DNA of 64,000 nucleotides. Origin: Micromonosporaceae bacterium (GTDB taxonomy: Bacteria > Actinomycetota > Actinomycetes > Mycobacteriales > Micromonosporaceae). The notes beneath the pieces were generated by a model, which worked only from the letters and a program-made list of their open reading frames with translations, had not been told where the DNA came from and did not search any database. The position numbers were made by a program, and so were the translations under genes. Below are positions 18,906 to 63,993 of the stretch, piece after piece. The stretch's first letter is position 1; each line of letters opens with the position of its first letter. The stretch is from NCBI GenBank assembly GCA_036378155.1, contig DASUXA010000040.1:25800-89799 (forward strand), written 5' to 3'.

Positions 18906-18906
18906 C

Positions 18907-21207: not shown

Positions 21208-21282
21208 CGGCCTGTGCGGCAGCCCCGGTCACGGCCATGGGCTGCGGACACGGGCAGGCCACGGCGGTATGCGGGAGGTGCC

Positions 21283-21864: not shown

Positions 21865-21865
21865 T

Positions 21866-21953: not shown

Positions 21954-21954
21954 C

Positions 21955-24354: not shown

Positions 24355-25205
24355 TTCCCGAGGCGTTCGACTATGTCCGACCGTCCACGGTCGACGACGC
24401 GGTACGCGCGCTCGCCGCCGCCGGCGACGAGGCGAAGGTGATCGCCGGTGGGCAGAGCCTGGTCCCGGTGCTGCGACTGCGCCTGGCCGCGCCCACGGTC
24501 CTGGTCGACATCGGTCGGATCGCCGACCTGCGCGGCGTCCGCGAGGACGGCGACGACCTGGTGATCGGCGCGACCACCACGCACGACGAGGTCCTCCACG
24601 ATCCGCTGGTCGCCCGGTACGCGCCGCTGATCGCCGAGGCGACCGCGACGGTCGCGGACCGGCAGGTGCGGCACCTGGGTACCTTCGGCGGGTCGCTGGC
24701 GCACGCCGACCCGGCGGGCGACCTGCCCGCCGTGGCGGTGGCGCTGGACGCCCGTCTCGAGATCGCCGGTCCGAACGGGATGCGGACGGTTCCCGCCGCC
24801 GACTTCTTCCTCGACTACCTGACCACCGCGCTCGGCGTCGACGAGGTGCTGGCGGCGGTACGGGTGCCGAAGCTTCCCGGGTGGGGCACCCACTACGAGA
24901 AGTTCAGCCGGGTCGCCCAGGCGTGGGCGCTGGTCGGGGTGGCGGCGGCGATCGAACGCGCGGACGGCACGATCACCGGCGCGCGGGTGGCGCTGACCAA
25001 CATGGGTCCGACCCCGGTACGCGCCCGCGCGGTCGAGCAGGCGCTGGTCGGCGCGCCCGCCACCGCCGAGGCGATCGCCGAGGCGGCGAGCCGCGCCGGC
25101 GACGGTACGCAGCCCGGCAGCGACCTGTCCGCGTCCGCCGACTACCGCGCCCATCTGGCGACGGTACTGACCGGACGCGCGGTGTCCGCCGCGAGCGGAC
25201 TGTAG
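24351..25205 (+). CDS. coxM: FAD-binding medium subunit (CoxM-like)
   Basis: GTG 24351 overlaps the coxL stop (GTGA). FAD_binding_5-type block AGGQSLVPVLRLRLA. Confidence 0.9.
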   Translation: MIPEAFDYVRPSTVDDAVRALAAAGDEAKVIAGGQSLVPVLRLRLAAPTVLVDIGRIADLRGVREDGDDLVIGATTTHDEVLHDPLVARYAPLIAEATATVADRQVRHLGTFGGSLAHADPAGDLPAVAVALDARLEIAGPNGMRTVPAADFFLDYLTTALGVDEVLAAVRVPKLPGWGTHYEKFSRVAQAWALVGVAAAIERADGTITGARVALTNMGPTPVRARAVEQALVGAPATAEAIAEAASRAGDGTQPGSDLSASADYRAHLATVLTGRAVSAASGL

Positions 25206-25218
25206 CGAGGAGGTACCG

Positions 25219-26031
25219 GTGCGCCTCGATCACGACTTCACCGTCCCGGTACCAGCCGACGAGGCGTGGCGGGTGCTGCTCGACGTGCCCCGCGTCGCCC
25301 CGTGCATGCCGGGGGCGACGCTGACCGACAGCGACGGCGACCGGTTCGCCGGTACCGTCAAGGTCAAACTCGGACCGATCACGTTGAGTTACCGGGGTAC
25401 CGGGCACTTCGTGGACCGTGACGAGTCCACCCGCCGCGTCGTCATCGAGGCGCACGGTCGGGAGAGCCGGGGGTCGGGTACCGCCGCGGCGACGGTGACC
25501 GCCGTGCTCGAACCGGTCGGCGACACCACGCGGGTACGGGTCAGCACCGATCTGCACGTCACCGGCCGCCCCGCGCAGTTCGGTCGGGGCATGATCGCCG
25601 ACGTCAGCGGCAAACTGGTCGACCAGTTCGCGGCGTGTCTCGCGCAGGAGTTGACCGGCGGCGGCGCGGAAGCCGTCGGCGCGCGGGCGCCCACGCAAGC
25701 GGCTGTCGGCGCGCCGGCACAAGCCGGGATGGACGCGCAGGCGCCCGGGGCAGCCGCCGGGTCGCCGCCGCCCGGCGCCGGGCAGCCGGTGTCGCCGGCG
25801 GCGCCGGGCGCGGCAGCCGAGGTCGGCGTCGCGCCCGAACCGGTCGCCACCGCGCCCGGCCCGGCGCCGACGCAGCCCACGGCGACCACCGGGCGCGCTG
25901 CCGAGCCGATCGACCTGCTCGAGGTCACCGGACTGCGTGCGCTGCTGCGCGAGCACGCACCGACCGTCGCGCTGCTCACCGCCGTGGCGGTGGTGGCGTG
26001 GGTGCTGGGACGCCGCTCGGCGCGACGGTGA
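25219..26031 (+). CDS. coxG: CoxG-like SRPBCC protein with an Ala/Pro-rich linker and a C-terminal TM helix
   Basis: The N-terminal 150 aa fit the CoxG family (VKVKLGPITLSYRG, HVTGRPAQFGRGMI). The C-terminus is TVALLTAVAVVAWVLGRRSARR. Confidence 0.8.
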   Translation: MRLDHDFTVPVPADEAWRVLLDVPRVAPCMPGATLTDSDGDRFAGTVKVKLGPITLSYRGTGHFVDRDESTRRVVIEAHGRESRGSGTAAATVTAVLEPVGDTTRVRVSTDLHVTGRPAQFGRGMIADVSGKLVDQFAACLAQELTGGGAEAVGARAPTQAAVGAPAQAGMDAQAPGAAAGSPPPGAGQPVSPAAPGAAAEVGVAPEPVATAPGPAPTQPTATTGRAAEPIDLLEVTGLRALLREHAPTVALLTAVAVVAWVLGRRSARR

Positions 26032-37742: not shown

Positions 37743-39164
37743 CTAACCCGGCTGGGTCGCCGTGTCGGCGCGCGCGCGTGCCGCGGCGACCAGTACCGCC
37801 AACTCCCGCTCGATCGCGCCCGCCAGCAGTTCGACCTCGGGCGTGCTGTCGTCGTCCCAGGTGATGCCGAACGACAGTTGCCCGTGGTACGACAACATCG
37901 CGATCCCGGTGCGCAGCCGCAGGGCGATCGGCACGTACGGCAGGATCTCCACGATCGGGCGGCCCAGCGCGTACAGCGTGCGCGGCGGTCCCGGCACGTT
38001 CGTCGTGACCGTCACGATGTTGCGTTGCGGCAGCCGGGCGGCGAACCGTACCGCCCAGGAGATCGGCGCGAAAGGCTCGTGCCGGGCCAGGGTCGTCATC
38101 GCCTCGCCCGCCTCCGCCTCCTTGCTCGCCTTCAGCGCGGCGAGCCGCACGTGTACCACGCCCAGCCGCTCCACCGGGTCGGCGACGTCGACCGGCAGCA
38201 GCGGCAGCATCATCGAGATGCGGTTGTCGATGACGCCTCCCTGGTCCGGTGCCCGTACCGACACCGGCACCAGGGAGCGGACCGCGTCGGGTACCGGCTG
38301 CTCGTCGCGGTGCAGCAGCAGCGCGCGGAACGCCCCGGTGACGGCGGACAGTACGACGTCGTTGACGGTGACTCCGAACGCGCGGGCGGTACCGACGATG
38401 TCCGGCAGCAAGGCGCGGGCGACGCCGTACCGGCGCTGCGCGCCGATCGGGCCGCTCAGCGACGACCGGGTCACCGGTCGCAGCACCCCGGCGAGCTCGG
38501 TGAGTCCCCGCGCGGTGTCCGCGACCCGGCGCGCCAACGCCGCCGGGGTACGCATCGCCCGACCCACCAGCCGCACCTGCTCCATCGGGGTCCGCGCCAG
38601 GTCGGCGAGCGCCAGCACGGTCAGCCGGGTCGTGCTCGGCTCCGGCGGCGGGTTCCACGCGGGTGCCGGACCGCCGGGCGAGCGGCGGCGATCGTGCGGC
38701 GAGTCGTCGAAGGTCAGGCTGTACAACTGGTTGCCGGACAGCCCGTCAGCCATGCAGTGGTGCACCTTCGACAGGATCGCCCACCGCCCGTCCGCCAGCC
38801 CCTTGATCACCCAGCACTGCCACAGCGGCCGGTCCCGGTCCAGTCGCTGCGACATGATCCGGGCGACCAGGCGGCACAACGCGTCGTCGGTCGGCTCCGG
38901 AATCGCGGTCCACAGCACGTGCCGGTCGAGGTCGAATCGGGGGTCGTCGACCCACACCGGTTGCCCGAGGTCGAACGGGACGGTGCGGACCTTCTGCCGG
39001 TACCGGGGAATCGACGGCACCCGCTCGCCGAGCATCCGCAGGAACTCGTCCCGGTCCGGCATGGGACCCTCGACCACCGCGACCGAGGCGATCGCCAGCG
39101 ACGCGTGCCGATCCTCGTCCTCGGCGTCGAGAAAGCCCGCGTCGAGCGGGCTCAGGTGCTCCAT
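37743..39164 (-). CDS. wax ester synthase/diacylglycerol acyltransferase (WS/DGAT)
   Basis: Started at ATG 39164 (MEHLSPLDAGFL). The catalytic motif is HHCMADG. Confidence 0.9.
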   Translation of the reverse strand: MEHLSPLDAGFLDAEDEDRHASLAIASVAVVEGPMPDRDEFLRMLGERVPSIPRYRQKVRTVPFDLGQPVWVDDPRFDLDRHVLWTAIPEPTDDALCRLVARIMSQRLDRDRPLWQCWVIKGLADGRWAILSKVHHCMADGLSGNQLYSLTFDDSPHDRRRSPGGPAPAWNPPPEPSTTRLTVLALADLARTPMEQVRLVGRAMRTPAALARRVADTARGLTELAGVLRPVTRSSLSGPIGAQRRYGVARALLPDIVGTARAFGVTVNDVVLSAVTGAFRALLLHRDEQPVPDAVRSLVPVSVRAPDQGGVIDNRISMMLPLLPVDVADPVERLGVVHVRLAALKASKEAEAGEAMTTLARHEPFAPISWAVRFAARLPQRNIVTVTTNVPGPPRTLYALGRPIVEILPYVPIALRLRTGIAMLSYHGQLSFGITWDDDSTPEVELLAGAIERELAVLVAAARARADTATQPG

Positions 39165-39270
39165 CACGACCCCCGTGGCACCCCGCGTCAGCCACACGCT
39201 GACCGGCGCTCTCGGGTCCAGGCTCCCCGGTGGCGGCGCGCGGCGGGCAGGGCCGACCGGCCCTGCCGAC

Positions 39271-39341
39271 CCTTGCCGCCCGGCCTTGTCCGGTCGGCGC
39301 TGCCCACCTTGCCGCCCGGCCTTGTCCGGTCGGCGCTGCCC
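39271..39341. repeat. exact 35-bp unit duplicated in tandem (period 36)
   Basis: CCTTGCCGCCCGGCCTTGTCCGGTCGGCGCTGCCC occurs at 39271-39305 and 39307-39341, in the divergent WS/DGAT - hydrolase spacer. Confidence 0.9.
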
Positions 39342-39377
39342 GTTGTCCGGCGGCACACGGCCGGGCAGGCTTGGTCC

Positions 39378-40265
39378 GTGACGACGCTCGCGCGCACCAC
39401 GAACGGCACGATCGAGATCGCGTACACGGTGGACGGCCCCCCGCACGGCGAGCCGCTGCTGCTCGTCATGGGTCTCGGCATGCAGATGATCTTCTGGCCG
39501 GACGGCTTCGTCGCCGAGCTGGTGGCGCGCGGCTTCACTGTCGCCCGGTTCGACAACCGCGACGTCGGGCTGTCCACACACCTCACCGGGCACCGCCCGG
39601 CGAGCCTGCCGACCATGCTCGCCCGCCCGGCGGCGGGCGCGGTGTACGACCTGGACGACATGGCCGACGACGCGGTCGCGGTGCTCGACGCCCTCGACTG
39701 GTCCAGCGCGCACATCGTGGGCGCGTCGCTGGGCGGGATGATCGCGCAGACCGTCGCCGTGCGGCACCCGAGCCGGGTGCGTACCCTCACCTCGATCATG
39801 TCGACCCCGTCGCCCCGGATCGGTCGACCCCGGCCGCGTGCGCTGCGGGTACTCGTCGGACACGACGCCCGCGACCGGGAGCAGGCAGCCCGGCGGATGG
39901 TGCGGGTGTTCCGGGTGATCGGTTCGCCGGGATACCCGCACGACGAGGCGTGGCTGCGCGAGGCGGCGGCTCAGGCGTACGACCGGGCGCACGACCCCGC
40001 CGGGGTGCGTCGGCAACTCGCGGCGATCGCCGCCTCCGGGGACCGGCGTGCGGGGCTGGCGAACCTGCGCATACCCGCGCTCGTCCTGCACGGCGAGGCG
40101 GACCCGCTGGTACGCCCGTCCGGCGGTCGCGCCACTGCCGCGGCGATACCGGGCGCGCGACTGGTGACGTATCCCGGGATGGGTCACGACCTGCCCGGCG
40201 ACCTGTGGTCGACGTTCGCCGACGAGATCGCCGCCCTCGCCGCCACCAGCGGTAACGCACTGTAA
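39378..40265 (+). CDS. alpha/beta hydrolase
   Basis: In-frame GTG 39378. Blocks PLLLVMGLG and the nucleophile elbow GASLGG. Confidence 0.85.
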   Translation: MTTLARTTNGTIEIAYTVDGPPHGEPLLLVMGLGMQMIFWPDGFVAELVARGFTVARFDNRDVGLSTHLTGHRPASLPTMLARPAAGAVYDLDDMADDAVAVLDALDWSSAHIVGASLGGMIAQTVAVRHPSRVRTLTSIMSTPSPRIGRPRPRALRVLVGHDARDREQAARRMVRVFRVIGSPGYPHDEAWLREAAAQAYDRAHDPAGVRRQLAAIAASGDRRAGLANLRIPALVLHGEADPLVRPSGGRATAAAIPGARLVTYPGMGHDLPGDLWSTFADEIAALAATSGNAL

Positions 40266-40375
40266 CCGACGAAACACGGTCACATGGACCGCGAGCGCGC
40301 GGGGCACCTGTCATCCTGTACGCATCACCGGGGTGGCCGGCGTCACATCAGTGGTCACCGTCCTGGGAGGGCGCC

Positions 40376-48824: not shown

Positions 48825-49187
48825 CTAGCCGCGCTCCTGCGGGATCTCCTCGATCTGGGACACCCCGCTGTCGGCGTGTGCCCCGTACCGCCGCCACACC
48901 TCGTGCAGCAGGATGCGTCCGTCCGGCAGGATCTCCGGCGTGCTGTGGCATTCACCGGAGATGATCCGACCGTCCTCGAGAACCATGCAGTAGGCGAAGT
49001 CGATCGAGCCGTCCGGCGCGCATCGCCCGGCGAGGGTGCCGCGCCGCGCGTGCCCGCCGGTGAACTCGCCCCACAGCAGGTCGCCGTCCTGGTAGTAGTG
49101 CGCGACACGGGTGTGTTCGCCGGTGCCGTCCTCGACCGGGCGGAACCGCCGCCCGTGATAGTCGATCGACGCGGCGGGTGCGGACAT
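48825..49187 (-). CDS. small conserved hypothetical protein (120 aa)
   Basis: ATG 49187 is preceded by AAGGAG. The sequence is non-repetitive (IDYHGRRFRPVEDGTGEHTRVAHYYQDGDLLWGEF). Confidence 0.65.
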   Translation of the reverse strand: MSAPAASIDYHGRRFRPVEDGTGEHTRVAHYYQDGDLLWGEFTGGHARRGTLAGRCAPDGSIDFAYCMVLEDGRIISGECHSTPEILPDGRILLHEVWRRYGAHADSGVSQIEEIPQERG

Positions 49188-49347
49188 GGCAGCTCCTTGC
49201 GACGTGTCCGTGCCGATCGCGGCGGAACAGCCGCGTCGGGCAGACCCTGGGATGCCGACGGCGCGGCGTACTGACGACGGGCCGTGATCGTAGCAGGCGC
49301 ATCGACGTCCCCACATGCCGCCGCCGGCGTGCGTACACTCGGCGACC

Positions 49348-50010
49348 ATGGTTGTCGCCGCGCCCACAGTGGACGTTCTTCGTGCCGCCGTGACCACCTT
49401 CGTCGGCGACGGCGGACCGGATCGTTCCTGGCTGCGGCTTTGTCGGCAGACCGCCCCGGCGATCGACCTGTCCACGGCGCAGCACCGCCGCGCGGTCCTG
49501 GTCTGGCTGAACGCCTGGGGCTGCCGGCTGCGCTACCCCCGCCCCGGTGAGGAGGACCTGTTCGACGTCGGTCTCGCCGGGTGGTGGAACCGCTGGGGCG
49601 GCGTGCTGCCGCCGGTGGACACGAGGCTGCCGGCGTTGCCGGAGGACGCGCTGCCCCTGCTCGGCGCGGCGTTCTCGGATCTCGCCCGGGTACGGGTGGC
49701 GCCCGGGGCGCGGGGTCGCTCGCTCGGCTCGACGGCAGCGAGCAAACTGCTGTACGCGTTGCGTCCCGCCGCGCTGCTGCCGTGGGACGAGGCGATCGCC
49801 CGTACCCTGCACGGCAGCCGCGACGGCGACGCCTACGTCGCGCACCTGCGGCTGGGACGCTCCTGGGCGCGGCGGCTGCTCGCCGAGACCGGGCTGGACG
49901 AGGCGGCGCTCGCCGACGCGCTCGGGCAGCCGGGACGGTCGCTGGCGAAGATGCTCGACGACTACTGCTACCTGGTGTGTACCCGGGGCGTCGACCCGGC
50001 GCCCCGGTGA
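49348..50010 (+). CDS. hypothetical protein
   Basis: 220 aa from ATG 49348. It has high GC3 and balanced composition. The overlapping minus-strand ORFs are Arg-rich shadows. Confidence 0.6.
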   Translation: MVVAAPTVDVLRAAVTTFVGDGGPDRSWLRLCRQTAPAIDLSTAQHRRAVLVWLNAWGCRLRYPRPGEEDLFDVGLAGWWNRWGGVLPPVDTRLPALPEDALPLLGAAFSDLARVRVAPGARGRSLGSTAASKLLYALRPAALLPWDEAIARTLHGSRDGDAYVAHLRLGRSWARRLLAETGLDEAALADALGQPGRSLAKMLDDYCYLVCTRGVDPAPR

Positions 50011-50026
50011 GGCGGGGCTGACGTGG

Positions 50027-50058
50027 GGCTGGGTCGGCCCGTACGGGCCGACCCAGCC
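50027..50058. terminator. perfect 32-nt palindrome between convergent genes
   Basis: GGCTGGGTCGGCCCGT/ACGGGCCGACCCAGCC. Every position pairs. It sits in the 53-nt spacer at the 3' end of the ADH gene. Confidence 0.65.
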
Positions 50059-50063
50059 GACCC

Positions 50064-51155
50064 TCAGTCGAACAGCACGACGCTGCGCAGGACGTCGCCC
50101 CGGCGCATCTTCTCGAACGCCGCCTCGACGTCGGCGACACCGATCCGCTCGCTGACGAACCGGTCGAGCGGCAACCTGCCCTGCAGGTGCAGGTCCACCA
50201 GCGTCGGCATGTCGCGCGACGGCAGGCAGTCGCCGTACCAGCAGGTCTTGTACGTGCCGCCGTGCAGGAACATGTCCAGCAGCGGCATCTCCATCCGCAT
50301 CGACGAGTCCGGCCGGGCGACCAGGACGAACGTGCCACCGACCGCGCGCGCGTAGAACGCCTGCCGCCAGGTCTCCGGGAACCCGGCGGCGTCGATGGTC
50401 ACGTCGGCGCCGAGCCCGTCGGTGAAGGTCCGGATCGTAGCGACCACATCGGTGTCCCGGCTGGCGTCGACGACGTGGGTGGCGCCGAGTTCCTCGGCGA
50501 CCGGCAACTTCCGCGCGTCGATGTCCACTGCGATGATCGTGGTCGCGCCCGCCAGTCGCGCGCCGGCGACCGCCGCGCTGCCCACCCCGCCGCAGCCGAT
50601 GACCGCGACGGTGTCCCCGGGACGGACGTTGCCCGCGCGCATCGCCGCGCCGAGCCCCGACATCACGCCACAGCCGAGCAGGCAGGCAACGGCGGGGTCG
50701 ATCGCCTTGTCCACCGGCGTGCACTGTCCGGCGTGGACCAGGGTGAGCGGGGTGAAGGCGCCGATACCCAGCGCCGGACCCAGCGGCTCCCCGGTGGTCA
50801 GCGTCATCGGCCGGCTCGCGCCGAGTTCGTTCAGGCACGCCTCGGGCACCCCGCGCCGACAGGGTCGGCACCGCCCGCACACCGCCCGCCAGTTGAGGAT
50901 GACGAAATCGCCCGGCGCTACGTGCTGGACGCCGTCGCCCACCTGCTCGACGATCCCGGCCGCCTCGTGACCGAGCAGGTACGGGTACCCGGAGCCGATG
51001 ACGCCGTCGCGGTAGTGCAGGTCGGTGTGGCAGACCCCGCAGGCCAGTACCCGTACCGTGGCTTCACCCGGCCCGGGGTCCGGAACCACGATGTCGCGGG
51101 TCTGCACGGGCTGGCCCGGGCCGAGCGAAACCACGGCCTCGACTGTCTGCGCCAT
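50064..51155 (-). CDS. zinc-dependent alcohol dehydrogenase (class III / mycothiol-dependent formaldehyde dehydrogenase-like)
   Basis: Motifs [25 protein letters not shown], and a Rossmann GCGGVGS. Confidence 0.9.
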
Positions 51156-51225
51156 GTGCCATGTGTCCTTGTCTGTTCGGTATCTGTGGTGGTCTGTCCG
51201 GCTGGCGTGACGGCGGTCGGTCCGG

Positions 51226-52470
51226 TCAGTCCGCGAAGTCCACGGTGATCAGGTCGGCGTACCGCATCATCGTGTCGAAGGCGTCGTCCTTGGACGTCCC
51301 GGTGGTACCGAGGAACCCGAGGATGGTGTTGCCGTGCGGCGGGCGCTTGACGACGTCGCCCGGTCGCGCGGTGATCTTGAGAAGGAAGGTCCGGTCCGAC
51401 TCGCTGACCTCGGCGGGTACGTGCACCTTCGCGATCGTCCCCGCGTCGCAGATCAGGCACATCGACGTGGTGTGGGTGCCGGTGGGTTGGAAATGGCGGA
51501 CCCGGGGGCGTACCCCACGGGCGATGTCCACCACCGCGGCGATCGGGTCGTGGTCGGCGGTCAGCCGCGCGATCATGTCGAGCCCGCCGCCGCCGACCCG
51601 CGCGGCGATCTCCAGCAGGTGCGGCTTGCCGTCGTGGAAGCGCACCTCGGCGTGTCCCACGCTGCGCCGCAGCCCCTGCGCCCGCATCCCGGCGGCGACC
51701 ACCTCGTGCACCGCGGCGAGATCCTCCGGGCTCATCGACGTCGGTGCGTGGTGCACGTCGTCGTCGAAGGTGTCGCGCTCGACGGTGATCCGGTCCACGA
51801 CCGAGCCGAGGTACACCTCGTCGTCCCAGATGACGACCTCCATCAGGTACTCGGCGCCGTCCAGGAACGACTCCACCAGCAGTCCGCTCGGTCCGAGGTC
51901 GACACCGTCCGGCTCGGACCTCGCCCAGAACATGTCGCGGCTGCCCGCCTCCGCCTGGGCGTACCGTTCGGCCAGTTCCGCCGGGGATTCGACCTTGAAC
52001 ACGAAGTTGCTGCCGGCGCCGTGCGTCGGCTTGACGATCACCGGGTAGCCGAACTCCTCGGCCGCGGCGTTCGCCTCGGCGAGACTGTGGGTCAGCCGGT
52101 ACCGGGGCGAGCGAGCGCCCGCCCGCTCGTACGCCTGCCGCATCAGGTACTTGTTGCGGCAGTTGACCGCCGTTTCCACGCCGATGCCGGGCAGACCGAG
52201 AGCCTCGGCGACCGCCGCCACGGTGATCACCGACGACTCGGAGAAGGTCAGTACCCCGTCGAACGCCTCGACCTGGTGCCACTGCTTGGCGGTGGCGATG
52301 ATCTCGTCGATGTGCCGCGAGCCCGCCACCCGGTACCGTTCGGCGGGCCAGAAGTCCGGCTCGCCTTCGCCGTTGAGCACGTACAGCGTCGCGCCCAGAG
52401 CCTCCACCTGTTCATACCGGGACTTGTAGTACGACAGGTACTGACAGGTCTCGATGGCGAGCAGCTTCAC
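51226..52470 (-). CDS. ATP-grasp ligase (L-amino-acid-ligase-like)
   Basis: 414-aa ORF with [30 protein letters not shown] and [12 protein letters not shown]. Confidence 0.9.
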
Positions 52471-52512
52471 TGGTTCTCCTACGTCAATCGCGGACCGGAC
52501 GCCGTCGACCGG

Positions 52513-54075
52513 CTATCCGAACGTGGTGGGCAGCGGCGGCAACCGGAACATGACGACCTTGTCCGGGGGCGCGTCCTGCAGTTGTAGCCGCACCCCTTCG
52601 GCGGTCAGCGTGCCGGTCACGTCGACGAGGACCGGCGCGGCGTACCCGAGCAGGGTCTGCAGTTGGGCGAGCACGTCGGCGGCGGTACCGACCTCGATCG
52701 GGCTGTCCGCCAGCCGCTCGAGATGGGTCGCGACGGCGTCCGCCACCGCGCTCGGGCTGAACCGCTCGTCGTCGTAGTGCCGGCGCAGCCGGTCGGCGAG
52801 GCGGCGGGCGCGGTCGTGTCCGGTCGCGCTCACCGGCAGCACCGTACCGTCGGCGATCGGCAGTGCGGCGAGCGTCGTGGCCAGCCGGTTCCACGGTCGC
52901 ACCAACCGGGCGGCGACCACCGCCTGCAGGTCCGCCTCGGTGAAATTGGCCCGCTGGAATTCCGGCGCGGTCAGCGCCAGGTAGAACCGCGCCAGGTCGC
53001 GGGGCACCCGGTCGAGCAGGTCGGTCGCCGAGATCAGATGGTTGCGGCTGGTGGAGAACTTCGACCGGTCCAGCTCGTAGAACTCGTTGGTGAACGTCGC
53101 CGCCGGAGTGGCGTACCCCGCCGGGTGCGACAGCAGCATCGCCAGGTCGAGCATGCCCCAGTGGAAGACGTTGTCGTATCCGTGGAAGTAGACGATCGTC
53201 GGGCGGGTGTCGGCGAGCCACCAGGCGTCGGTACGGTCGCCGCCGACTCCCAGCTGCCGCGCCGACCACCAGGTGCTGTAGATGACCGCCGGCATCGCCT
53301 CCAGCCACGGGTACAACCGCTGCCCCGGCGTCTCGGGGAACGGCGCCGGCAGCCCCCAGTCGCCGGGCACGGTCACCGGTACGTCCGGCAGCGGACCGGC
53401 CATCAGCTCCGCGATCAGGTCGCGGGCGTGCGGACGCCACGTCGGCAGGTGCCGGTCGTAGTAGTCGGTCAGCTTCCCGCGCAGCCGCTCCAACGGCAGG
53501 ACCAGGATCTCCACCTCGCGGTACTCGACGTCGTCGGTGGGATCGAGGGTGTACCGCGCGTCGAGCAGCTCGTCGAAGTTGTTCGGGTGCCCGCACGCCT
53601 CGCAGGCGCCGCCCGCGCTGCCCGCGAGGCACGTCGGGCAGGTACCGGACACCATCGCGTCGTACATCCACACGCCGGCGCGCCGGGCGAACGGAAACCG
53701 GACGGTACGCAGCTCGAACACGCCCGCCGCGTGCTGGGCGGTGACGAAGTCGACAACGGTTCGCCGGTACGTGTCGTCGACCGGTGGCAGCCCCACCAAC
53801 GTGGTGCCCAGCGCGGTGAACGCCTGCTGGATCCGGGCGGTCGCGTCGCGTACCAGTTCCGACGGGGTCACCCCGAGCTTCGCCGCGCGGGTCGCGACGA
53901 ACGTCTGGCTGTCGTCGGTACAGGTGGTGTAGACGGCGAACCGGTCACGGGCACGCTGGTACCGGGCGTAGATGTCGGCGGCGAGGTACGGACCGGCGAG
54001 GTGCCCGACGTGCAGACCTCCGTTGGAGGTGGGCGTGGCCGGTACCACGATCACCGGCGCGTCGGGCAGGCTCAC
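52513..54075 (-). CDS. methionyl-tRNA-synthetase-like protein (hydrazine synthetase component)
   Basis: In-frame GTG 54075 overlaps the cupin stop (GTGA). It has the HIGH-like PTSNGGLHVGH, the zinc knuckle CPTC..CEACG and the KMSKS-like KFSTSR. The upstream 97 codons of the track ORF are off-frame shadow of the cupin gene. Confidence 0.9.
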   Translation of the reverse strand: MSLPDAPVIVVPATPTSNGGLHVGHLAGPYLAADIYARYQRARDRFAVYTTCTDDSQTFVATRAAKLGVTPSELVRDATARIQQAFTALGTTLVGLPPVDDTYRRTVVDFVTAQHAAGVFELRTVRFPFARRAGVWMYDAMVSGTCPTCLAGSAGGACEACGHPNNFDELLDARYTLDPTDDVEYREVEILVLPLERLRGKLTDYYDRHLPTWRPHARDLIAELMAGPLPDVPVTVPGDWGLPAPFPETPGQRLYPWLEAMPAVIYSTWWSARQLGVGGDRTDAWWLADTRPTIVYFHGYDNVFHWGMLDLAMLLSHPAGYATPAATFTNEFYELDRSKFSTSRNHLISATDLLDRVPRDLARFYLALTAPEFQRANFTEADLQAVVAARLVRPWNRLATTLAALPIADGTVLPVSATGHDRARRLADRLRRHYDDERFSPSAVADAVATHLERLADSPIEVGTAADVLAQLQTLLGYAAPVLVDVTGTLTAEGVRLQLQDAPPDKVVMFRLPPLPTTFG

Positions 54076-54437
54076 GACGCGGAGCCGTGACGCTCGACGA
54101 ACCGGTCGGCCATCTCCCGGTCCCACCACACCGCGTACATCTGGAACGGCTCGTCGCCCCGGTTGACGACCTGGTGCCGCTCGTGCGGCGGGAAGTGCAC
54201 GACGTCGCCCTCGACGAACGGCGTGGTCCCGGCGTCGGTGACCAGCTCGGCGCGCCCGGTCATGGCGATCCAGATCTCGTACTCGTGGTGACCGTGCGCG
54301 CCCGACTCCGCGCCCGGCGGCACCACGCACCAGGAGCCCTCGAACGGGGCGTTGAGCACGTCCCACGGCATCAGCCGTTGGGCGCGCAACCCGTTGTCGG
54401 GTTTGAGACCGTCGCGGTCGAGCTTGCGAATCTCCAT
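54072..54437 (-). CDS. stand-alone cupin protein (hydrazine synthetase component)
   Basis: ATG 54437, 2 nt after the upstream stop. Cupin motif 1 is GAESGAHGHHEYEIWIAMTG and motif 2 is GDVVHFPPHERHQVVN. Confidence 0.85.
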   Translation of the reverse strand: MEIRKLDRDGLKPDNGLRAQRLMPWDVLNAPFEGSWCVVPPGAESGAHGHHEYEIWIAMTGRAELVTDAGTTPFVEGDVVHFPPHERHQVVNRGDEPFQMYAVWWDREMADRFVERHGSAS

Positions 54438-54439
54438 GC

Positions 54440-55747
54440 TCAGTCGTCCTCTCCCTGGATGGACACGGCGTCGACGCGCGCCGTCGTCGTGGCGGCGCGG
54501 TGGGCGAGCAGGTCGTCCACCATCTCGCCGGCGCGTACCGCGAGCACGCTGATCAGCGAGTCCGCGATGCCGTGACTGTCCTCGTTGACACCCTGCAGGT
54601 AGCAGCCGGCGGTGACGGAGGCCGGCGTGATCATGCGGTAGTGGCGGTCCACCGCGATGTCGCGCACCCCCACCGCCTCGGCGGTCTGCCGGATCAGCCA
54701 CGGCTTGTCCTGCTCGAAACCCGTGCCGAGGAGCACCATGTCGGCGCGTACCTCGCTGGTCGTGCCGCGCATCCGGTCGCGCACCGTCAGCACCACGTCG
54801 TCGCCGTCCATCCGGGTGGCGAGCACATCGGTCAGGGTGTGCATGACGATCCGCTCGCTGCCGGTCAGCCGGTCCTGGTACATCTGCCGGTACAGCGCGT
54901 CGAGCATGCCCGGCGCGAGCCCGGCGTAGTTGGTGCGGTGCATCTCCGCCAGCACCTGGGCGCGGACCTGCGGCGAGCCGGCGTAGAACTGGTCGACGAA
55001 GGACGGGTAGTACAGCTCGTTGGTGAACGCGCTGCTCTCGTAGCCGCGCAGCCCGGCGGATCTCATGATCATCCGGCATTCGGCGGCGGGGAACCGCTGG
55101 TACACCGTCCACAGCATCTCGGCGGCGCTCTGCGCGCCGCCGACGACCACGAGCCGGCGTACCGCCGCCGGGTCGATCAACTCCACGCGGCTGGTGAACT
55201 CGGTGCTGTGCACGACCCGCTCGCCGGGCAGGTTCCGGAACTCGGCGGGTACGGCGGGGGTGCGACCGATGCCGATGACCACGTCCCGGCAGCGCACGAC
55301 CTCGCCGGTGTCGAACCGGACCCGCCAGCCGTCCACGGTACCGTCGTCGCGCGACGAGACGGGCTCGACCGCGGTGACGGTTCGTCCGTACTCCACCTGC
55401 ACCCGCTCCAGCGACTTGGCGACCCACTGCAGGTACGCGGACACCTCGAGGCGGAACGGGGTGGCGGAGCCGAGGTTGATGAACTCGTCGAGCCGGCGGA
55501 CCGAGTGCAGGTAGTTGATGAACGAGTACTTACTGCGCGGATTGCGCAGCGTCGCGAGGTCCTTCAGGAAGCTGACCTGGCTCTGCGTCCACGGCAACAG
55601 CATGCCGCGCTGCCAGGCGATGTCGTCGTGCCGTTCCACTACGAGGGTCTCGTCGGCGAGCTGCGGAGCCATCTCCTCGGCCGCCACGGCGAAGGCGAGG
55701 TTGGCGGGACCGGCGCCTACCGCGACCACTGACATCTGTCTTTCCAT
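54440..55747 (-). CDS. flavin-dependent lysine/ornithine N-hydroxylase (SidA/IucD/PvdA family)
   Basis: Blocks VGAGPANL, FLKDLATLRNPRSKYSF, VVGGAQSAAE and LGTGF. Confidence 0.9.
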   Translation of the reverse strand: MERQMSVVAVGAGPANLAFAVAAEEMAPQLADETLVVERHDDIAWQRGMLLPWTQSQVSFLKDLATLRNPRSKYSFINYLHSVRRLDEFINLGSATPFRLEVSAYLQWVAKSLERVQVEYGRTVTAVEPVSSRDDGTVDGWRVRFDTGEVVRCRDVVIGIGRTPAVPAEFRNLPGERVVHSTEFTSRVELIDPAAVRRLVVVGGAQSAAEMLWTVYQRFPAAECRMIMRSAGLRGYESSAFTNELYYPSFVDQFYAGSPQVRAQVLAEMHRTNYAGLAPGMLDALYRQMYQDRLTGSERIVMHTLTDVLATRMDGDDVVLTVRDRMRGTTSEVRADMVLLGTGFEQDKPWLIRQTAEAVGVRDIAVDRHYRMITPASVTAGCYLQGVNEDSHGIADSLISVLAVRAGEMVDDLLAHRAATTTARVDAVSIQGEDD

Positions 55748-55756
55748 CGTGCGCCC

Positions 55757-56881
55757 TCATCCCCACGCTGTGTCGGCGCCCTGGACCGGGCAGGTCAGCA
55801 CCGGCGGGCTTGCGAAAAACGACGGCGACTGCCCGGACATCGCGGCGCCCAACGCGGTCGCGGCGAGCCGGCTCGACGCCAGGACACTCTTCGCGGCGCC
55901 CCCCGCACCACCGGTGAAGCTGTACACCCCGGGCATGCCCGCGACCGCGCGCAGCCGCAGCCCGCCGTCGGCGGCGAAACACTCCGTCGCGGCGGTCACC
56001 CGTCGCGGCGGCGGCAGCGGTCCGGCGAGCCCGAGGACGGTACGGGCGACATCGGACACCCGCTCGACGCAGACCGGGTCGGCAGCGATGTCGCCCGGCG
56101 CGACACCCCACGCCGACGTGGCGACCCCGAGCAGCACCGCGCCGTCGCCGTAGCTGCGCCCGTACAGCGTGGACAGGTCGTCGACGAGACAGCCGAGGTC
56201 GGGGCGTGCCAGCGGGTACACCCCGTACTGGATGCGCCGGGTGCGCAGCGGCACAGGCAGCAGCCTGCCGGTCCACGCGCCGGCGGCGACGACCACCGCG
56301 TCGTGCCGCCGGACGGTACCGCCGACCAGCGTCACCGCCGGTCCCGCGTCCGACGCCGGTACCGCCTGCACCGCCGCGACCGGTTCGTCGCGCACCCGGG
56401 CACCCAGGTCGGCGGCGCGCGCGGCGGCGTACCGGCGCATCGCGTCCGGATCGACGTACCCGGCGTACCGCTCGACCACGGCGACCGTGCCGTCCGGCCG
56501 GGGTCCTAGGTCGAGGGTCCGGGCGAGCTCGGCGGCGGGTACCACCCGCGCCGAACCGGCGACCGCCGCGTCCAGCACCGCGAGCTGGGGCTGGGGGTCG
56601 GCGTCCGGGCGCAGGAAGTAGCTGGAGCGCGTCTCGCGGTACCCGCAGGCGCGCGCCAGCATCGGGTCGCCGCGCAGCTCGGCGAGGCTGGCGGCAGCCA
56701 ACCGGCACTGGTCCAGGTCGGTCTCGAAGCCCCGGACGAACCCTCCGGACGCCCCGGTGGCGTCCATGCCCGACGTCGCCGGGTCCCGGTACAGGTCGAC
56801 GTGCGCGCCCTGTTCGGCGAGGCGCAGCGCGAGCATCGAGCCGGCGACGCCGCCGCCGACGACGGCTATCCGGGTGCCCAT
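55757..56881 (-). CDS. FAD-dependent oxidoreductase (D-amino-acid-oxidase family)
   Basis: Started at ATG 56881 (MGTRIAVVGGGVAGSMLALRLAEQG). GTG 56935 is an alternative start. Confidence 0.85.
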   Translation of the reverse strand: MGTRIAVVGGGVAGSMLALRLAEQGAHVDLYRDPATSGMDATGASGGFVRGFETDLDQCRLAAASLAELRGDPMLARACGYRETRSSYFLRPDADPQPQLAVLDAAVAGSARVVPAAELARTLDLGPRPDGTVAVVERYAGYVDPDAMRRYAAARAADLGARVRDEPVAAVQAVPASDAGPAVTLVGGTVRRHDAVVVAAGAWTGRLLPVPLRTRRIQYGVYPLARPDLGCLVDDLSTLYGRSYGDGAVLLGVATSAWGVAPGDIAADPVCVERVSDVARTVLGLAGPLPPPRRVTAATECFAADGGLRLRAVAGMPGVYSFTGGAGGAAKSVLASSRLAATALGAAMSGQSPSFFASPPVLTCPVQGADTAWG

Positions 56882-57134
56882 CAAGTCAGGTTCGGCCGGG
56901 AGGGGGACGCCGGCGCGCCTTTGCGCGCGGACCACCGGTCGAACCCACGCATGATCGACTCCGCTGGACGATGACGAACGCTGTCCTCTTCCACTGTGGA
57001 GGGGAGGATATGGTCGGCTCGGAGGGCGGGCAAGGGTTCACCGTCGCCCTCGACGCGCGTAGATGCCTCGGACGAGCGGTGTGACCTCGACCACCTCCAC
57101 CGATCGGTTGGTTCTCAGCTTTCGCTCAGGCACC

Positions 57135-57163
57135 CCGCCGCGCGCCGCGCGGGCGCGCGGCGG
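57135..57163 (-). terminator. 12-bp GC hairpin 7 nt downstream of the MFS stop
   Basis: CCGCCGCGCGCC-GCGCG-GGCGCGCGGCGG. Confidence 0.5.
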
Positions 57164-57169
57164 CGTGCT

Positions 57170-58426
57170 TCAGGCTTCGGCACCCGCCTGCGCCGGCTCG
57201 TCGGCGACGGTGGGCGCGGTCGGCACGGCGGTCGGAGCGGGCTGGACCGCGACGAGCACGACGGCGGCGGCGGTCAACGCCGCGGACGCGACGATCGTCG
57301 GGGTGTAGCTGTGCTCGATGTCCGCGAGCATCGCCCCCAGCTGGCTGGTGACCGCCACCGAGAGCATGTGCACCGCCCACAGCACCCCGAGCGCGGTGCC
57401 GCGCACCTCCGGCGGCAGAACGCGGCTCACCCACATGGTCGTGGCGACCACGGTGGCGAGGTAGCTCGCGCCGAACACCGCGCCGAACGCGATGACGGTC
57501 GCCGGGTTCGCGACGAACAGCAGCATGACCATCGCGGCGGCGCGCATCGCGTACGCCCCGGCCAACGAGGCGCGGATCCACCCCAGGTCGCACAGCCGTC
57601 CCACGACCAGCGACCCGATGATCTCCAGGGCCCCCAGCACCGCCACCGCCGACGCGCCGGTCGAGCTGGAAATGCCGTGGTCGTGCAGATAAGGGAAAAG
57701 ATGTACGTCGATGAATGCCATCGTGGTTCCGCACCCGATGAACGCCAGCACCAGAGCGCGGATCTGCGGGTGGCGGAACGTGGTCGCGGTCGCCTGCCAC
57801 AGCGACACCCGTGCCGGGCGCTCGGCGGGGGCCTGCCGGGTGGACAGTCGTACCAGCACCAGGGACAGCGGCAGCAGCACGACCAGGAAGATCAGCCCGA
57901 GGACGAACAGCACCTGGTTCCACGACGTGGTGTGGTCCAGGTGCGCCCACAGCGGAACGAGCACCATGAAGCCCACTGCCGCGCCGTTGGTCAGCACCGC
58001 GTACACCAGTCCGCTGTTGCGACCGCGGAACAGTTGATCGGCGAGCACTCCCAGCGGTACGTAGGAGAGCATGGTCACCGCGACCGCGCCGACCACCCCG
58101 TAGCTGACAATGAAGATCCACAGGTGGCTGGTGGTGGCGCTGAGCAGCAGCACCAGCCCGTTGAGCGCGGTGCCGACGGCGAGGACCGGGATCGCGCCGA
58201 TCCGGTCGGCGAGGTGCCCGACCACGGACGAGGACACGGCGGTGAACACCGCGAACAGCGTGGTCGCGATCGCCAGGCTGCCCCGGCTGACCTCGAAGCC
58301 GCCCGCGATGTCCAGGAAGAACACCTGGACGGTGCTCTTCAGGGACGACCCGGCGAGCGAGATCAGAAAGCTCGCCGTCGCCGCGAAGATCGCGAACGCG
58401 GTGCCTACCTTGGCGGTCCTGGTCAT
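57170..58426 (-). CDS. MFS transporter (12 TM)
   Basis: Started at ATG 58426 (MTRTAKVGTAFAIFAATASF). It has hydrophobic repeats throughout. Confidence 0.85.
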   Translation of the reverse strand: MTRTAKVGTAFAIFAATASFLISLAGSSLKSTVQVFFLDIAGGFEVSRGSLAIATTLFAVFTAVSSSVVGHLADRIGAIPVLAVGTALNGLVLLLSATTSHLWIFIVSYGVVGAVAVTMLSYVPLGVLADQLFRGRNSGLVYAVLTNGAAVGFMVLVPLWAHLDHTTSWNQVLFVLGLIFLVVLLPLSLVLVRLSTRQAPAERPARVSLWQATATTFRHPQIRALVLAFIGCGTTMAFIDVHLFPYLHDHGISSSTGASAVAVLGALEIIGSLVVGRLCDLGWIRASLAGAYAMRAAAMVMLLFVANPATVIAFGAVFGASYLATVVATTMWVSRVLPPEVRGTALGVLWAVHMLSVAVTSQLGAMLADIEHSYTPTIVASAALTAAAVVLVAVQPAPTAVPTAPTVADEPAQAGAEA

Positions 58427-58773
58427 TGAGCAGCCTCTGCTTCGGACGTACGGAGCGGTGTCGAGCCTTGCGTCGAGCGCGCGTCGACCACCGCCGTGGT
58501 GATCGCCGACCGGGTCATCCTGGCATGCGCGCGCATCGACGACCAGCACTGGTGTCGCGGCGCTGGCGGCGGTACGTTCTCCGGTTGCCGTGAGCGACGG
58601 CGATCCCGACGACGCTGCTCCCGCCGTGCTCGGGTACCGGCGCCGTCACCTTCAACCCGAAGCCGGCGAGCAGCACGTCGTAACCAGGCGACCGTGAAGG
58701 TCAGCTACGCCGGGCAGCCCTGACCCGACGACCGACCTGCGGCAACCCGGCACCTACGACGCGGACTGTCACA

Positions 58774-61999: not shown

Positions 62000-62734
62000 A
62001 TGAACGAGATCCACTGTCGGGTCGAGACCACGCTTCCGGTCGCGGTGGTGCGACTGGAGGGGGTACTCGGACTGGACAGCGCGTCCACGGTTCGTACGGC
62101 GCTGCTCAAGCGCCTCGCCGAACACCCGGACGCGTTGATCGTCGACCTGTCCCGACTGACGGTCGCCGACGAGTCCGCGTTGTCGGTGTTCGTCGCCGTG
62201 GCGCGACAGGCGGCGATCTGGCCCGGCATCGCGATGGCGTTGTGCGGGGTACCGGAACGGTTCGCCGCGATCGCGTCGCGTCTGGTACCGGTCTGCGACG
62301 ACCCTGGGCAGGCGCGCGACGTCCTGCGCCGCGTCCCGGTCCCGCTGCAGCGGGACCGGCGGCTGCTGCCGGTGACCGGGTCGGCGCGGCGCGCCCGCGA
62401 CCTGGCGACCGAGGCATGTCTGGACTGGGGGCTGTCCGACCTGGTGATCCCGAGTTGCGTGGTGGCCGGTGAACTGGTCGCCAACGCCGTCCAGCACGCC
62501 GGCACGCCGATGACGCTCAGTTTCCGCCGACTGCCCCGGTACCTGCACATCGCGGTGCGCGACGGCTCGGACCGTCCGGCGCTGCGCTGCGAGACGCACC
62601 CACTGGCACTGGGCGGCCGGGGGCTGATGATCGTCGACGCGACGTCGCGATGCTGGGGGTGCTCGCCGGCGACCGGCGGCAAGGTGGTCTGGGCGACGCT
62701 GGACGTCGGCGATCCGTGGCACGGCGACCGGTAA
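62000..62734 (+). CDS. STAS (anti-sigma antagonist-like) / HATPase (RsbW-type anti-sigma kinase-like) fusion protein
   Basis: The N-terminal VAVVRLEGVLGLDSASTVRTALL...IVDLSRLTVADESALSVFV fits STAS. The C-terminal VAGELVANAVQHA...GGRGLMIVDA fits HATPase_c_2. Confidence 0.8.
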   Translation: MNEIHCRVETTLPVAVVRLEGVLGLDSASTVRTALLKRLAEHPDALIVDLSRLTVADESALSVFVAVARQAAIWPGIAMALCGVPERFAAIASRLVPVCDDPGQARDVLRRVPVPLQRDRRLLPVTGSARRARDLATEACLDWGLSDLVIPSCVVAGELVANAVQHAGTPMTLSFRRLPRYLHIAVRDGSDRPALRCETHPLALGGRGLMIVDATSRCWGCSPATGGKVVWATLDVGDPWHGDR

Positions 62735-62805: not shown

Positions 62806-63993
62806 CTACGTGTCCACCGGACGCAGCACGGGACCCCGCGCGTCGGCGGACAGCAGGCGCCACACTCCGGCGCGGCGCAGCAGGTCGGCGACCACGGGTC
62901 GGGTGCGTACCACCGCGAACCGCGCGCCCGCGTGGCGGGCGGTGCGGCACCCGGCGACCAGCGCCGCGATGCCGGCCGCGTCGATCAGCGGTACCTGGGC
63001 GAAGTCGGCGCGCACCCAGCGGGGTCGCTCGGCCATCGCGGTACGGCACAGCGAGGCGCGCAGGTCGGCGGCGTTGTCGCGGTCGACCTCGCCGTGCACG
63101 GTCACGGTCACCCCGCCCGGCTCGCGGCCGATCTCGATCCGGGTGCCCAGCTCGTCGACGACCGGGTCGCCGAGCCCCGGCCAAACCGGGTCGATGTCGC
63201 TGGTCATCGCGGCTCTCAGCCACGCGAGCGCCTGGGACAGCAGCCGCGACACGTGCATCTGCGAGATGCCGATCTCGGCGGCGATCTGCGACTGTGTCAT
63301 GTTGCCGTAGAACCGCATGGTCATGATGCGCTGTTCGCGTGCCGGTAGCCGGGGCAGCAGGGTCGCGAGGGTGACCTGGTCGTCCATCCGCTCCAACGCC
63401 GGGTCCCGCCCGCCGAGCATGGCGCCCAGGTCGGCGGCGTCCTCCTCGTGCGAGACCGGGGCGTCCAGCGACACCGGCTGGTACGCCCGAGCCAGGTCCA
63501 GCCCTTCGAGCACCTCCTCGGCGTCCAGCCGGAGGTGGGCGGCGAGGTCGTCGACCGTGGGCGAGCGGCCCAACTGGTGCGTCAGGTGCTCGTTGGCGCG
63601 CGTCATCTCCAGCCGCAGTTCCTGCAGCCGGCGCGGTACCCGGACCCGCCAGCCCCGGTCGCGGAAGTGCTTCTTCAACTCGCCGCGGATGGTGGGCGCG
63701 GCGTAGTGGCTGAACGGACCGCGGGTCTGGTCGTACCCGTCGACCGCCTTGATCAGCCCGACGGTGGCGACCTGGACGAGGTCTTCGAACGCCTCGCCGC
63801 GACCCTGGTAGTGGCGCGCCATCCGCACCGCGTACGGCAGCCCGGCCTCGATCACCTGCTCGCGCAGCCGGGCCCGGCACACGTTCCCGTCGGGCAGCGT
63901 GACGATCCGGGCGAACAACGCGGCCACGGCATCGTCGAGGTCGTTGGCGACATTTGCGGGACTCATGGGGTTCGGCGGTGACGCCCCGGTCAC
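62806..63993 (-). CDS. SigB/SigF-type sigma-70 family factor with C-terminal STAS-like domain
   Basis: Region 2 is FEDLVQVATVGLIKAVDGYD and region 4 is RIMTMRFYGNMTQSQIAAEIGISQMHVSRLL. About 125 extra C-terminal residues (VTVHGEVDRDNAADL...ADFAQVPLIDAAGIAAL...VVADLLRRAGV) follow. Confidence 0.85.
   Translation of the reverse strand: MTGASPPNPMSPANVANDLDDAVAALFARIVTLPDGNVCRARLREQVIEAGLPYAVRMARHYQGRGEAFEDLVQVATVGLIKAVDGYDQTRGPFSHYAAPTIRGELKKHFRDRGWRVRVPRRLQELRLEMTRANEHLTHQLGRSPTVDDLAAHLRLDAEEVLEGLDLARAYQPVSLDAPVSHEEDAADLGAMLGGRDPALERMDDQVTLATLLPRLPAREQRIMTMRFYGNMTQSQIAAEIGISQMHVSRLLSQALAWLRAAMTSDIDPVWPGLGDPVVDELGTRIEIGREPGGVTVTVHGEVDRDNAADLRASLCRTAMAERPRWVRADFAQVPLIDAAGIAALVAGCRTARHAGARFAVVRTRPVVADLLRRAGVWRLLSADARGPVLRPVDT

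Follow-up and report, generated by a model that had tools for sequence, protein, structure and literature searches.

We analysed a 64,000-nucleotide stretch of DNA from a Micromonosporaceae bacterium (assembly GCA_036378155.1, contig DASUXA010000040.1, positions 25,800 to 89,799 of the forward strand), hereafter the window, and followed up four adjacent minus-strand genes that an earlier sequence-only reading had taken for a hydrazine-forming cassette. They encode a DAO-type FAD oxidoreductase, a lysine/ornithine N-monooxygenase (NMO), a standalone cupin and a standalone protein resembling methionyl-tRNA synthetase (MetRS). Judged from their motifs and relatives, the four genes appear to form a genuine hydrazine synthetase (HS) cassette of the two-protein type, a member, not yet characterised, of a familiar class of enzyme sets. 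The best explanation of the locus as a whole, which we favour with moderate confidence, is an eight-gene unit independent of nonribosomal peptide synthetases (NRPS), in which the HS and an amino-acid ligase would together make a ligated dipeptide containing a nitrogen-nitrogen (N-N) bond.

The window has a G+C content of 70-75%, its raw lists of open reading frames (ORFs) are mostly noise, and real genes were picked by their third-position GC (GC3). Each of the four genes has a GC3 of 0.91-0.94 in its own frame and a clear Pfam identity (DAO 2e-27 over the full length, Lys_Orn_oxgnase 2e-87, Cupin_2 2e-15 and tRNA-synt_1g 1e-58), and we regard all four as real. The DAO and NMO genes are separated by 9 nt, the NMO and cupin genes by 2 nt, and the cupin stop overlaps the MetRS-like start by 4 nt; the coordinates, lengths and spacing given by the sequence-only reading are all borne out, and the motifs it quoted (IAVVGGGVAGS, VGAGPANL, VVGGAQSAAE and LGTGF) are all found in the translations. 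The NMO-cupin-MetRS-like arrangement is not due to chance, because it is contiguous in every locus that we fetched, from Micromonospora, Saccharothrix, Actinosynnema, Microbispora, Salinispora, Planomonospora and one metagenome.

Table 1. Features of the conserved unit in the window (positions in the window) and variable gene slots in related loci (L numbers, positions in the respective locus).
Feature	Position	Strand	Description
MFS transporter, probable exporter	57170-58549	-	Pfam MFS_1 6e-34; upstream end of conserved block
GC-rich terminator-like hairpin	57135-57163	-	directly after MFS stop; separates MFS transcript from DAO operon
DAO-type FAD oxidoreductase	55757-56881	-	374 aa, ATG start; alternative in-frame GTG at 56935
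Lys/Orn N-monooxygenase (NMO)	54440-55747	-	435 aa
Standalone cupin	54072-54437	-	121 aa
Standalone MetRS-like protein	52513-54075	-	520 aa
ATP-grasp L-amino-acid ligase	51226-52470	-	414 aa, GTG start; ATPgrasp_N + ATP-grasp_4 + LAL_C2 (Pfam)
Zn-dependent alcohol dehydrogenase (ADH)	50064-51155	-	363 aa, mycothiol-dependent formaldehyde dehydrogenase type; last operon gene
Palindrome, 25-nt arms	50018-50067	.	inverted repeat between converging ADH gene and inserted + strand ORF
ORF in insertion	49315-50010	+	231 aa, GC3 0.90
Small conserved avidin-fold protein	48825-49187	-	120 aa; in every complete related locus
KAS III/FkbH/carrier insertion (related loci)	L012 5130-8275; L013 5145-8300; L005-L011 about 4870-8140		
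DDAH/arginine-deiminase-superfamily gene (related loci)	L005-L007, L009 about 12990-13930; L013 12992-13828		slot between ligase and avidin-fold genes

The MetRS-like protein carries HVGH at residues 22-25 and KFSTS at residues 339-343, where MetRS has KMSKS, and both motifs are invariant among 120 of its homologues. In PyrN, an HS, the two motifs read HLGH and KFSTG, and the exchange K458A abolishes activity (PMC8664883; bioRxiv 2025.08.22.671884); K339 of the MetRS-like protein is the counterpart of this essential lysine. We searched 1.8 billion cluster representatives (50% clusters) with the protein and analysed the best 150 (178-593 bits), among which KMSKS was found in none and KFST in 124. 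Fifty-eight of the 150 are at least 600 aa long, and 50 of these 58 show the didomain HS architecture, with a cupin HxHxxxE motif at the N terminus. The best true MetRS in the PDB reached only 140 bits, and all 150 representatives score higher. Because its nearest 150 relatives are without KMSKS and many are fused to a cupin, the protein is best placed inside the HS family. We therefore rejected a housekeeping MetRS, a grouping that the sequence-only reading had proposed as a check: the best NCBIfam MetRS equivalog score was 198.6 bits against a cutoff of 587 (cutoffs of these models range over 550-590), the signature loop is KFSTS and the nearest representatives are of HS type. The predicted function is that of a tRNA-independent O-aminoacyl-hydroxylamine synthetase.

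This assignment rests on motifs, relatives and context. Similarity to PDB entries was dropped as a means of telling HS from MetRS and replaced by the representative search with its motif and fusion counts, since sequence, profile and fold all gave a near-tie. As single-sequence matches, the C-terminal part of PyrN (PyrN-C) and Pyrococcus MetRS (1RQG) tie, and a 26-sequence family profile scored 217 bits against PyrN-C and 214 bits against archaeal MetRS. An AlphaFold2 (AF2) model (pLDDT 84.6) has PyrN-C as its best match, with TM scores of 0.84/0.82 at 27% identity, next to 0.82/0.71 at 22% identity for 1RQG.

One could read these similar scores against archaeal MetRS and PyrN-C, together with the fact that the best PDB matches of the NMO are siderophore enzymes (PvdA and MbtG), as a sign that no N-N pathway exists here, the NMO serving a hydroxamate siderophore and the MetRS-like protein being a second, divergent MetRS such as a resistance copy. 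We find this very improbable. Our Pfam scan, which covered the GC3-supported genes of the 64-kb window and left out several stretches without a called gene, detected no acyltransferase, IucA/IucC or NRPS domain in any scanned gene, and the siderophore was rejected on these grounds. A second MetRS, for its part, has against it the change of KMSKS to KFSTS, the sub-cutoff MetRS scores, the count of zero KMSKS in 150 relatives, the 50 cupin fusions and the 4-nt overlap with an HS-type cupin gene.

The cupin points in the same direction. It is 75% identical to PDB entry 4RD7 (E 2e-56), with further PDB matches to plu4264 (3e-27) and, over residues 25-105, to RHS1 (5UQP, E 6.6e-11), a standalone cupin for which catalysis of N-N formation was demonstrated (PMC8664883). 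Residues H48, H50, E54 and H88 correspond to H50, H52, E56 and H90 of PyrN, the invariant catalytic glutamate included, and the protein is the putative component for the N-N bond-forming rearrangement. Taken with the motifs and relatives of the MetRS-like protein, the H/H/E/H site and the match to RHS1 uphold the proposal of an N-N-forming cassette of the Spb38-40, Tri26-28 or PyrN kind. Entry 4RD7, a crystal structure, itself bears only the name 'Cupin 2 conserved barrel domain protein'. Because it is an exact match, over the 118 residues seen, to the cupin encoded in the cluster of Salinispora arenicola (L013 9637-10011, KB896159.1), its function becomes inferable as the probable N-N-forming component of an HS.

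The NMO has FAD, NADPH and LGTGF motifs and is predicted to be a flavin-dependent N-omega-hydroxylase. Its donor would be an amino acid, L-lysine or possibly L-ornithine, as suggested by PDB scores of 253 bits for PvdA and 238 for KtzI (ornithine enzymes), 234 for MbtG (lysine) and 186 for another lysine N6-monooxygenase, compared with only 82-88 bits for diamine hydroxylases. We gave up an assignment to lysine or ornithine from these data, the scores of PvdA, KtzI and MbtG being too close. With respect to the N6-hydroxylysine that the sequence-only reading cited from known pathways, an amino-acid N-hydroxylase stands, and lysine in particular was assumed.

The conserved unit is larger than the cassette. 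In pairwise nucleotide comparisons of the window with five Micromonospora loci, similarity was confined to one block (48841-49196 and 50064-58446), in which the MFS, DAO, NMO, cupin, MetRS-like, ligase, Zn-ADH and avidin-fold genes follow one another, and the flanks share nothing. Because nucleotide similarity among the six Micromonosporaceae genomes stops at its edges, the block is a discrete eight-gene unit, about 48825-58549, that occurs in differing genomic contexts, and the limits of 52513-56881 given previously are too narrow.

The ligase is one of the additional genes. Its best PDB matches are the L-amino-acid ligases BL00235 (3VOT, 1e-31) and BacD, and a GGAG lies 8 nt upstream of its start codon. 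It is directly downstream of the MetRS-like gene in all complete loci, which come from six genera (with five Micromonospora strains) and a metagenome. Its identity is 84-91% within Micromonospora and 72-74% in other genera, where the MetRS-like protein has 55% and is the less conserved of the two. The ADH scores 569 bits against TIGR03451 (cutoff 513) and is found at the same position, 85-90% identical, in all five Micromonospora loci. The MFS protein is 75-82% identical in these loci, with the DAO gene always as its neighbour, and MFS genes are also present in the related clusters L015 and L018.

Strong intergenic hairpins were found only after the MFS and ADH stops, and the MetRS-like/ligase and ligase/ADH spacers are unstructured. 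The segment around the first hairpin (57125-57172) folds at -39.4 kcal/mol (z -3.7), a stability matched by 1 of 200 shuffles. The palindrome after the ADH gene looks like a candidate bidirectional terminator: the segment 50010-50075 folds at -41.8 kcal/mol (z -5.2), with none of 200 shuffles folding as well. Because these hairpins flank the DAO-to-ADH genes and the inner spacers are unstructured, the transcription unit most likely consists of six genes, DAO-NMO-cupin-MetRS-like-ligase-ADH. A scan for consensus promoters and terminators gave nothing useful in this high-GC DNA, and no regulatory RNA came up in scans for Rfam families and tRNAs.

Just upstream of the DAO gene there is also a 23-codon ORF (56881-56952, minus strand, ATG at 56952) whose TGA overlaps the DAO ATG (TGATG). 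This ORF may encode a translationally coupled leader peptide or have arisen by chance; the leader region is not conserved at the nucleotide level in the Micromonospora loci.

The last gene of the block encodes a small protein that appears to be a core partner of the cluster family. It is 56% identical to the protein at the same position in the related locus L012, and its homologues fall into 111 clusters, all tagged PF26421, with all organism-named ones from actinomycetes; the most distant homologue sits outside this cluster context. Searches with our copy of Pfam and of PDB sequences gave no match, and the fold search alone was informative: the AF2 model (pLDDT 91.6) is an eight-stranded beta-barrel, and avidins are the PDB folds nearest to it (TM about 0.65, E about 1e-3, 9-15% identity).

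Between the ADH and avidin-fold genes, the block is split by an insertion of about 870 nt (49197-50063) that is found in the window only. Its ORF has no match in Pfam, NCBIfam or PADLOC. A mobile element was considered for this insertion and set aside, with neither a match for the ORF nor convincing terminal repeats around the insertion.

Considering the cassette and its neighbours together, we propose the following pathway, in which X stands for the amino acid used by the MetRS-like enzyme. The NMO would hydroxylate L-lysine, or possibly L-ornithine, at its side-chain amine. The MetRS-like enzyme would then adenylate X and transfer it to the N-OH group, and not to tRNA, giving an unstable O-aminoacyl-hydroxylamine, and the cupin (H48/H50/E54/H88) would rearrange this ester to an N-N linked X-Lys hydrazine. 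Oxidation of the Lys C-epsilon-N bond by the DAO protein would release an alpha-hydrazino acid and aminoadipate semialdehyde. The ATP-grasp ligase would join the hydrazino acid to a second amino acid, a hydrazide like that made by FuzC being the most likely linkage and a peptide bond the alternative, and the MFS protein would export the resulting N-N dipeptide. The first four steps would follow established family chemistry (PMC8664883; bioRxiv 2025.08.22.671884; PMC13149037; PMC11705231), and the ligation is suggested by conservation, operon structure and the precedent of fuscazine (PMC13149037).

For the oxidative step, the DAO protein would cut the hydrazine adduct as its counterparts Spb39, Tri27 and FuzF do. 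Its weak NCBIfam matches (ThiO, the C-terminal domain of MnmC and N-methyltryptophan oxidase) are all oxidisers of C-N bonds, and a PDB sequence search found no close relative. It is the least conserved of the core genes, with 61-70% identity in Micromonospora and 43-46% elsewhere. This divergence, and the want of a close characterised relative, leave some room for a cut on the other side, as in Apy10, in which the enzyme would oxidise the C-alpha-N bond of X to yield N-omega-amino-lysine or -ornithine and a keto acid, with the ligase acting on the side-chain hydrazine; homologous FAD oxidases of either regiochemistry have been documented (PMC11705231). We think that such a course is unlikely, in view of the alpha-hydrazino acid released by Spb39 and Tri27, unlike Apy10 (PMC11705231), and likewise by FuzF (PMC13149037). 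Moreover, the Apy10 case involves a diaminobutyrate (DABA) hydroxylase, and the hydroxylase of the window is Lys/Orn-like.

The DAO gene is present in all related loci except Salinispora, where the hydroxylase, cupin, MetRS-like and ligase genes occur and no DAO gene was found within 10 kb. This locus would suit a pathway in which the uncleaved X-Lys (or X-Orn) hydrazine is itself the scaffold that the ligase extends, the DAO protein performing some other oxidation, for instance of the hydrazine to a hydrazone; hydrazone-forming oxidations are known in related pathways. We attach a rather small probability to it: the DAO gene accompanies the cassette in all the other loci and, in the window, heads the operon with 9 nt between it and the hydroxylase gene.

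We did not retain the free hydrazino acid that the sequence-only reading had put forward as the product of the locus. A ligated product is more likely because the conserved ligase shares an operon with the cassette. The four HS genes alone suffice to make a hydrazino acid in characterised pathways (PMC13149037; PMC11705231), and no further tailoring or assembly enzymes were seen in the scanned genes of the window; the alpha-hydrazino acid might on this basis be an end product, or a building block used elsewhere in the genome, with the ligase, ADH and barrel protein as unrelated neighbours. It is nevertheless improbable that the ligase, which adjoins the cassette in every complete locus of the six genera and the metagenome and surpasses the MetRS-like gene in conservation, would lie inside the only conserved block and within the same hairpin-bounded operon as an unrelated gene.

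Several points weigh against the proposed ligated N-N dipeptide pathway. What the analysis shows is the reality of the genes, their domains and family, the catalytic motifs, the conserved block and the limits of the operon; the individual reactions, X and the donor, the regiochemistry of cleavage and the ligase reaction are all inferred, and the role of the ligase is drawn only from conservation and the analogy with fuscazine. The MetRS-like clade is as near to archaeal-type MetRS (1RQG) as to PyrN-C in sequence and fold, and the hydroxylase scores do not separate lysine from ornithine. Salinispora, without a DAO gene within 10 kb, suggests that cleavage may not be obligatory in the cluster family. 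Most relatives hold extra genes, and the version in the window may make an intermediate-like product or be a reduced remnant. As for the nature of X considered below, the guess of a basic amino acid relies on the positions of residues in a helix and not on a ligand-bound structure.

The pocket residues of the MetRS-like protein bear on the identity of X. The paper on the PyrN-C structure (bioRxiv 2025.08.22.671884) defines these residues and cites Matsuda's eight-residue code, and the thrazarine paper gives TPDQWMNH as the glycine code and SADQWYGH as the threonine code. We mapped the code positions through an alignment to PyrN-C and extracted the code, with positions 1-2 anchored on HxGH, from 135 family representatives aligned with mafft --auto. 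The mapping can be considered valid because it returned the glycine code TPDQWMNH exactly in 20 representatives.

The code of the MetRS-like protein is ATDQWANW. Four of its eight positions depart from the glycine code, and it equals none of the three published codes retrieved; among the 135, it is shared only by the representative of its own clade, and the nearest codes are of the form xxDQWGNW. Thus, X is probably not glycine, glutamate or threonine, and the hydrazinoacetate model, which the sequence-only reading cited from known pathways, is disfavoured. Compared with the glycine type, the clade has Met260 changed to Ala, Phe305 to His, His306 to Trp and Phe310 to Asp. Residue 306 corresponds to Arg425 of PyrN, a residue in contact with the side chain of the substrate (bioRxiv 2025.08.22.671884), and residue 310 is one helical turn away from residue 306. 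In none of the 120 close homologues do the pocket residues vary, and therefore the whole clade should share one substrate. Our best guess for X is an amino acid with a long basic side chain, given an enlarged pocket with an invariant Trp and Asp. ATDQWANW with Asp310/Trp306 in this pocket is compatible with a basic side chain, and the guess agrees with the arginine-using FuzG and perhaps also with the guanidino-modifying gene found in sister clusters.

A more far-reaching proposal, which we advance only tentatively and rate as doubtful, is that the clade with ATDQWANW activates an amino acid new to the family, possibly a long basic one, that its single ligase gives a hydrazide-linked dipeptide antimetabolite, and that the avidin-fold barrel is a dedicated binding or self-protection protein. 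The clade is conserved in at least six genera of actinomycetes. If true, the window would represent, in its minimal natural form, a widespread and as yet uncharacterised family of N-N peptide pathways that work without an NRPS.

The clusters of Salinispora, Saccharothrix, Actinosynnema and Microbispora are true orthologues and share the NMO-cupin-MetRS-like-ligase-avidin-fold core with the window. The larger relatives carry, between the DAO and hydroxylase genes, a ketoacyl synthase III (KAS III), an FkbH-like glyceryl loader (TIGR01686, 3e-88) and a carrier protein; they also have a peptide-binding SBP5 protein, a cation exchanger, a second ATP-grasp protein, peptidases and often a gene of the DDAH/arginine-deiminase (ADI) superfamily. 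The Planomonospora cluster is without the carrier-protein module. The version shared by the window and Micromonospora is minimal, consisting of the core genes with MFS and ADH and none of the additions of the larger relatives. The slot that holds the ADH gene in Micromonospora is occupied in other genera by the DDAH-like gene, by an unannotated 310-aa gene, or by nothing. The DDAH-like gene hints at guanidino-group chemistry in the cluster family, and the pairing of glyceryl-acyl carrier protein chemistry with an HS is unusual. In the literature searched, we found no published description of this cluster family or of the pairing of FkbH with an HS.

Among described systems, the fuscazine (Fuz) cluster of Microbispora fusca would be the closest. 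It is NRPS-free, with separate cupin and MetRS-like genes and ATP-grasp ligases (PMC13149037, Nat Chem 2026). FuzC forms a hydrazide with the hydrazino acid as nucleophile and FuzG is arginine-specific; FuzB is a tRNA deacylase, FuzA an Fe/2-oxoglutarate (2OG) arginine hydroxylase and FuzH a pipecolate-specific second ligase (PMC13149037). Compared by published gene content, the two actinomycete loci share a split four-gene HS cassette and an ATP-grasp ligase and have no NRPS, polyketide synthase (PKS) or carrier protein. They differ in that the window has one ligase instead of two and adds the MFS, Zn-ADH and avidin-fold proteins. Pfam and NCBIfam found no tRNA deacylase, Fe/2OG arginine hydroxylase or second ATP-grasp protein among the genes of 48.8-58.5 kb. 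Gene order differs as well, the oxidoreductase gene lying between the cupin and MetRS-like genes in the Fuz cluster, whereas the DAO gene heads the operon in the window. We also considered a Microbispora bryophytorum cluster (P0041) as a Fuz cluster and ruled it out, since FkbH, KAS III and a peptidyl carrier protein (PCP) are present and a dioxygenase and a deacylase are not.

The sequence-only reading had noted that the flanks contain no PKS, NRPS or carrier protein, which holds for the GC3-supported genes of the window that were scanned with Pfam: none of them has a PP-binding, condensation or ketosynthase (KS) domain. Its further statement that this sets the locus apart from the characterised clusters is out of date, since fuscazine is NRPS-free (PMC13149037) and standalone cupin/MetRS-like pairs have been described since 2021 (PMC8664883). 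One such pair, RHS1 and its MetRS-like partner in Rhodococcus jostii RHA1, is encoded by separate genes as in the window (PMC8664883). PyrN and the RHS enzymes have the same two-component chemistry, the H/H/E/H cupin site and the HxGH and KFST motifs (PMC8664883; bioRxiv 2025.08.22.671884). They differ in using glutamate, with the code SFVQALNR and Arg390/Arg425, whereas the protein of the window has Trp at the Arg425 position and is about 27% identical to PyrN-C; they also work with a saccharopine-dehydrogenase-like enzyme and not with a DAO-type oxidase.

The systems of s56-p1 (Spb38/39/40), triacsin (Tri26/27/28) and azaserine (AzsN) resemble the window in combining an N-hydroxylase, cupin and MetRS-like domains and a DAO-type oxidase that releases an alpha-hydrazino acid (PMC11705231). 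In contrast, their cupin and MetRS-like parts are fused, they use glycine and their product enters carrier-protein, NRPS or PKS chemistry, whereas the window has separate proteins and no carrier was found.

The HS family has more than 1,200 predicted members (PMC13149037), and N-N-forming enzymes are wanted both as biocatalysts and as markers of bioactive metabolites of the hydrazine, hydrazide, diazo and pyrazole types. The present locus brings no new chemistry in principle. It is compact and apparently self-contained, with a six-gene operon and an exporter, and it could define a new amino-acid specificity, a second case of hydrazino-acid ligation by an ATP-grasp enzyme and a role for an avidin-fold protein, besides giving 4RD7 a function.

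Other features of the window lie outside this unit. ARAGORN called a 96-nt tRNA-Ala(CGC) at 9739-9834 on the minus strand, which overlaps two ORFs and has no Rfam tRNA match at the gathering threshold; the call is probably a false positive. A CO-dehydrogenase/xanthine-dehydrogenase-type operon (17802-26031, plus strand) encodes a MoxR-like AAA protein, a CoxE-like VWA protein, XdhC, a 2Fe-2S small subunit, an 810-aa molybdopterin large subunit and CoxG, and no FAD-binding medium subunit for it turned up among the scanned genes. The minus-strand gene at 37743-40307 encodes an 854-aa wax-ester synthase/DGAT, whose catalytic domains start at residue 385 after an N-terminal part of about 380 aa without a Pfam match. 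Finally, a divergent partner-switching pair is found at 62000-62734 (plus strand) and 62806-63993 (minus strand), comprising a 244-aa fusion of STAS with an RsbW-like HATPase_c_2 kinase domain and a 395-aa sigma-70-family factor with a C-terminal STAS domain.

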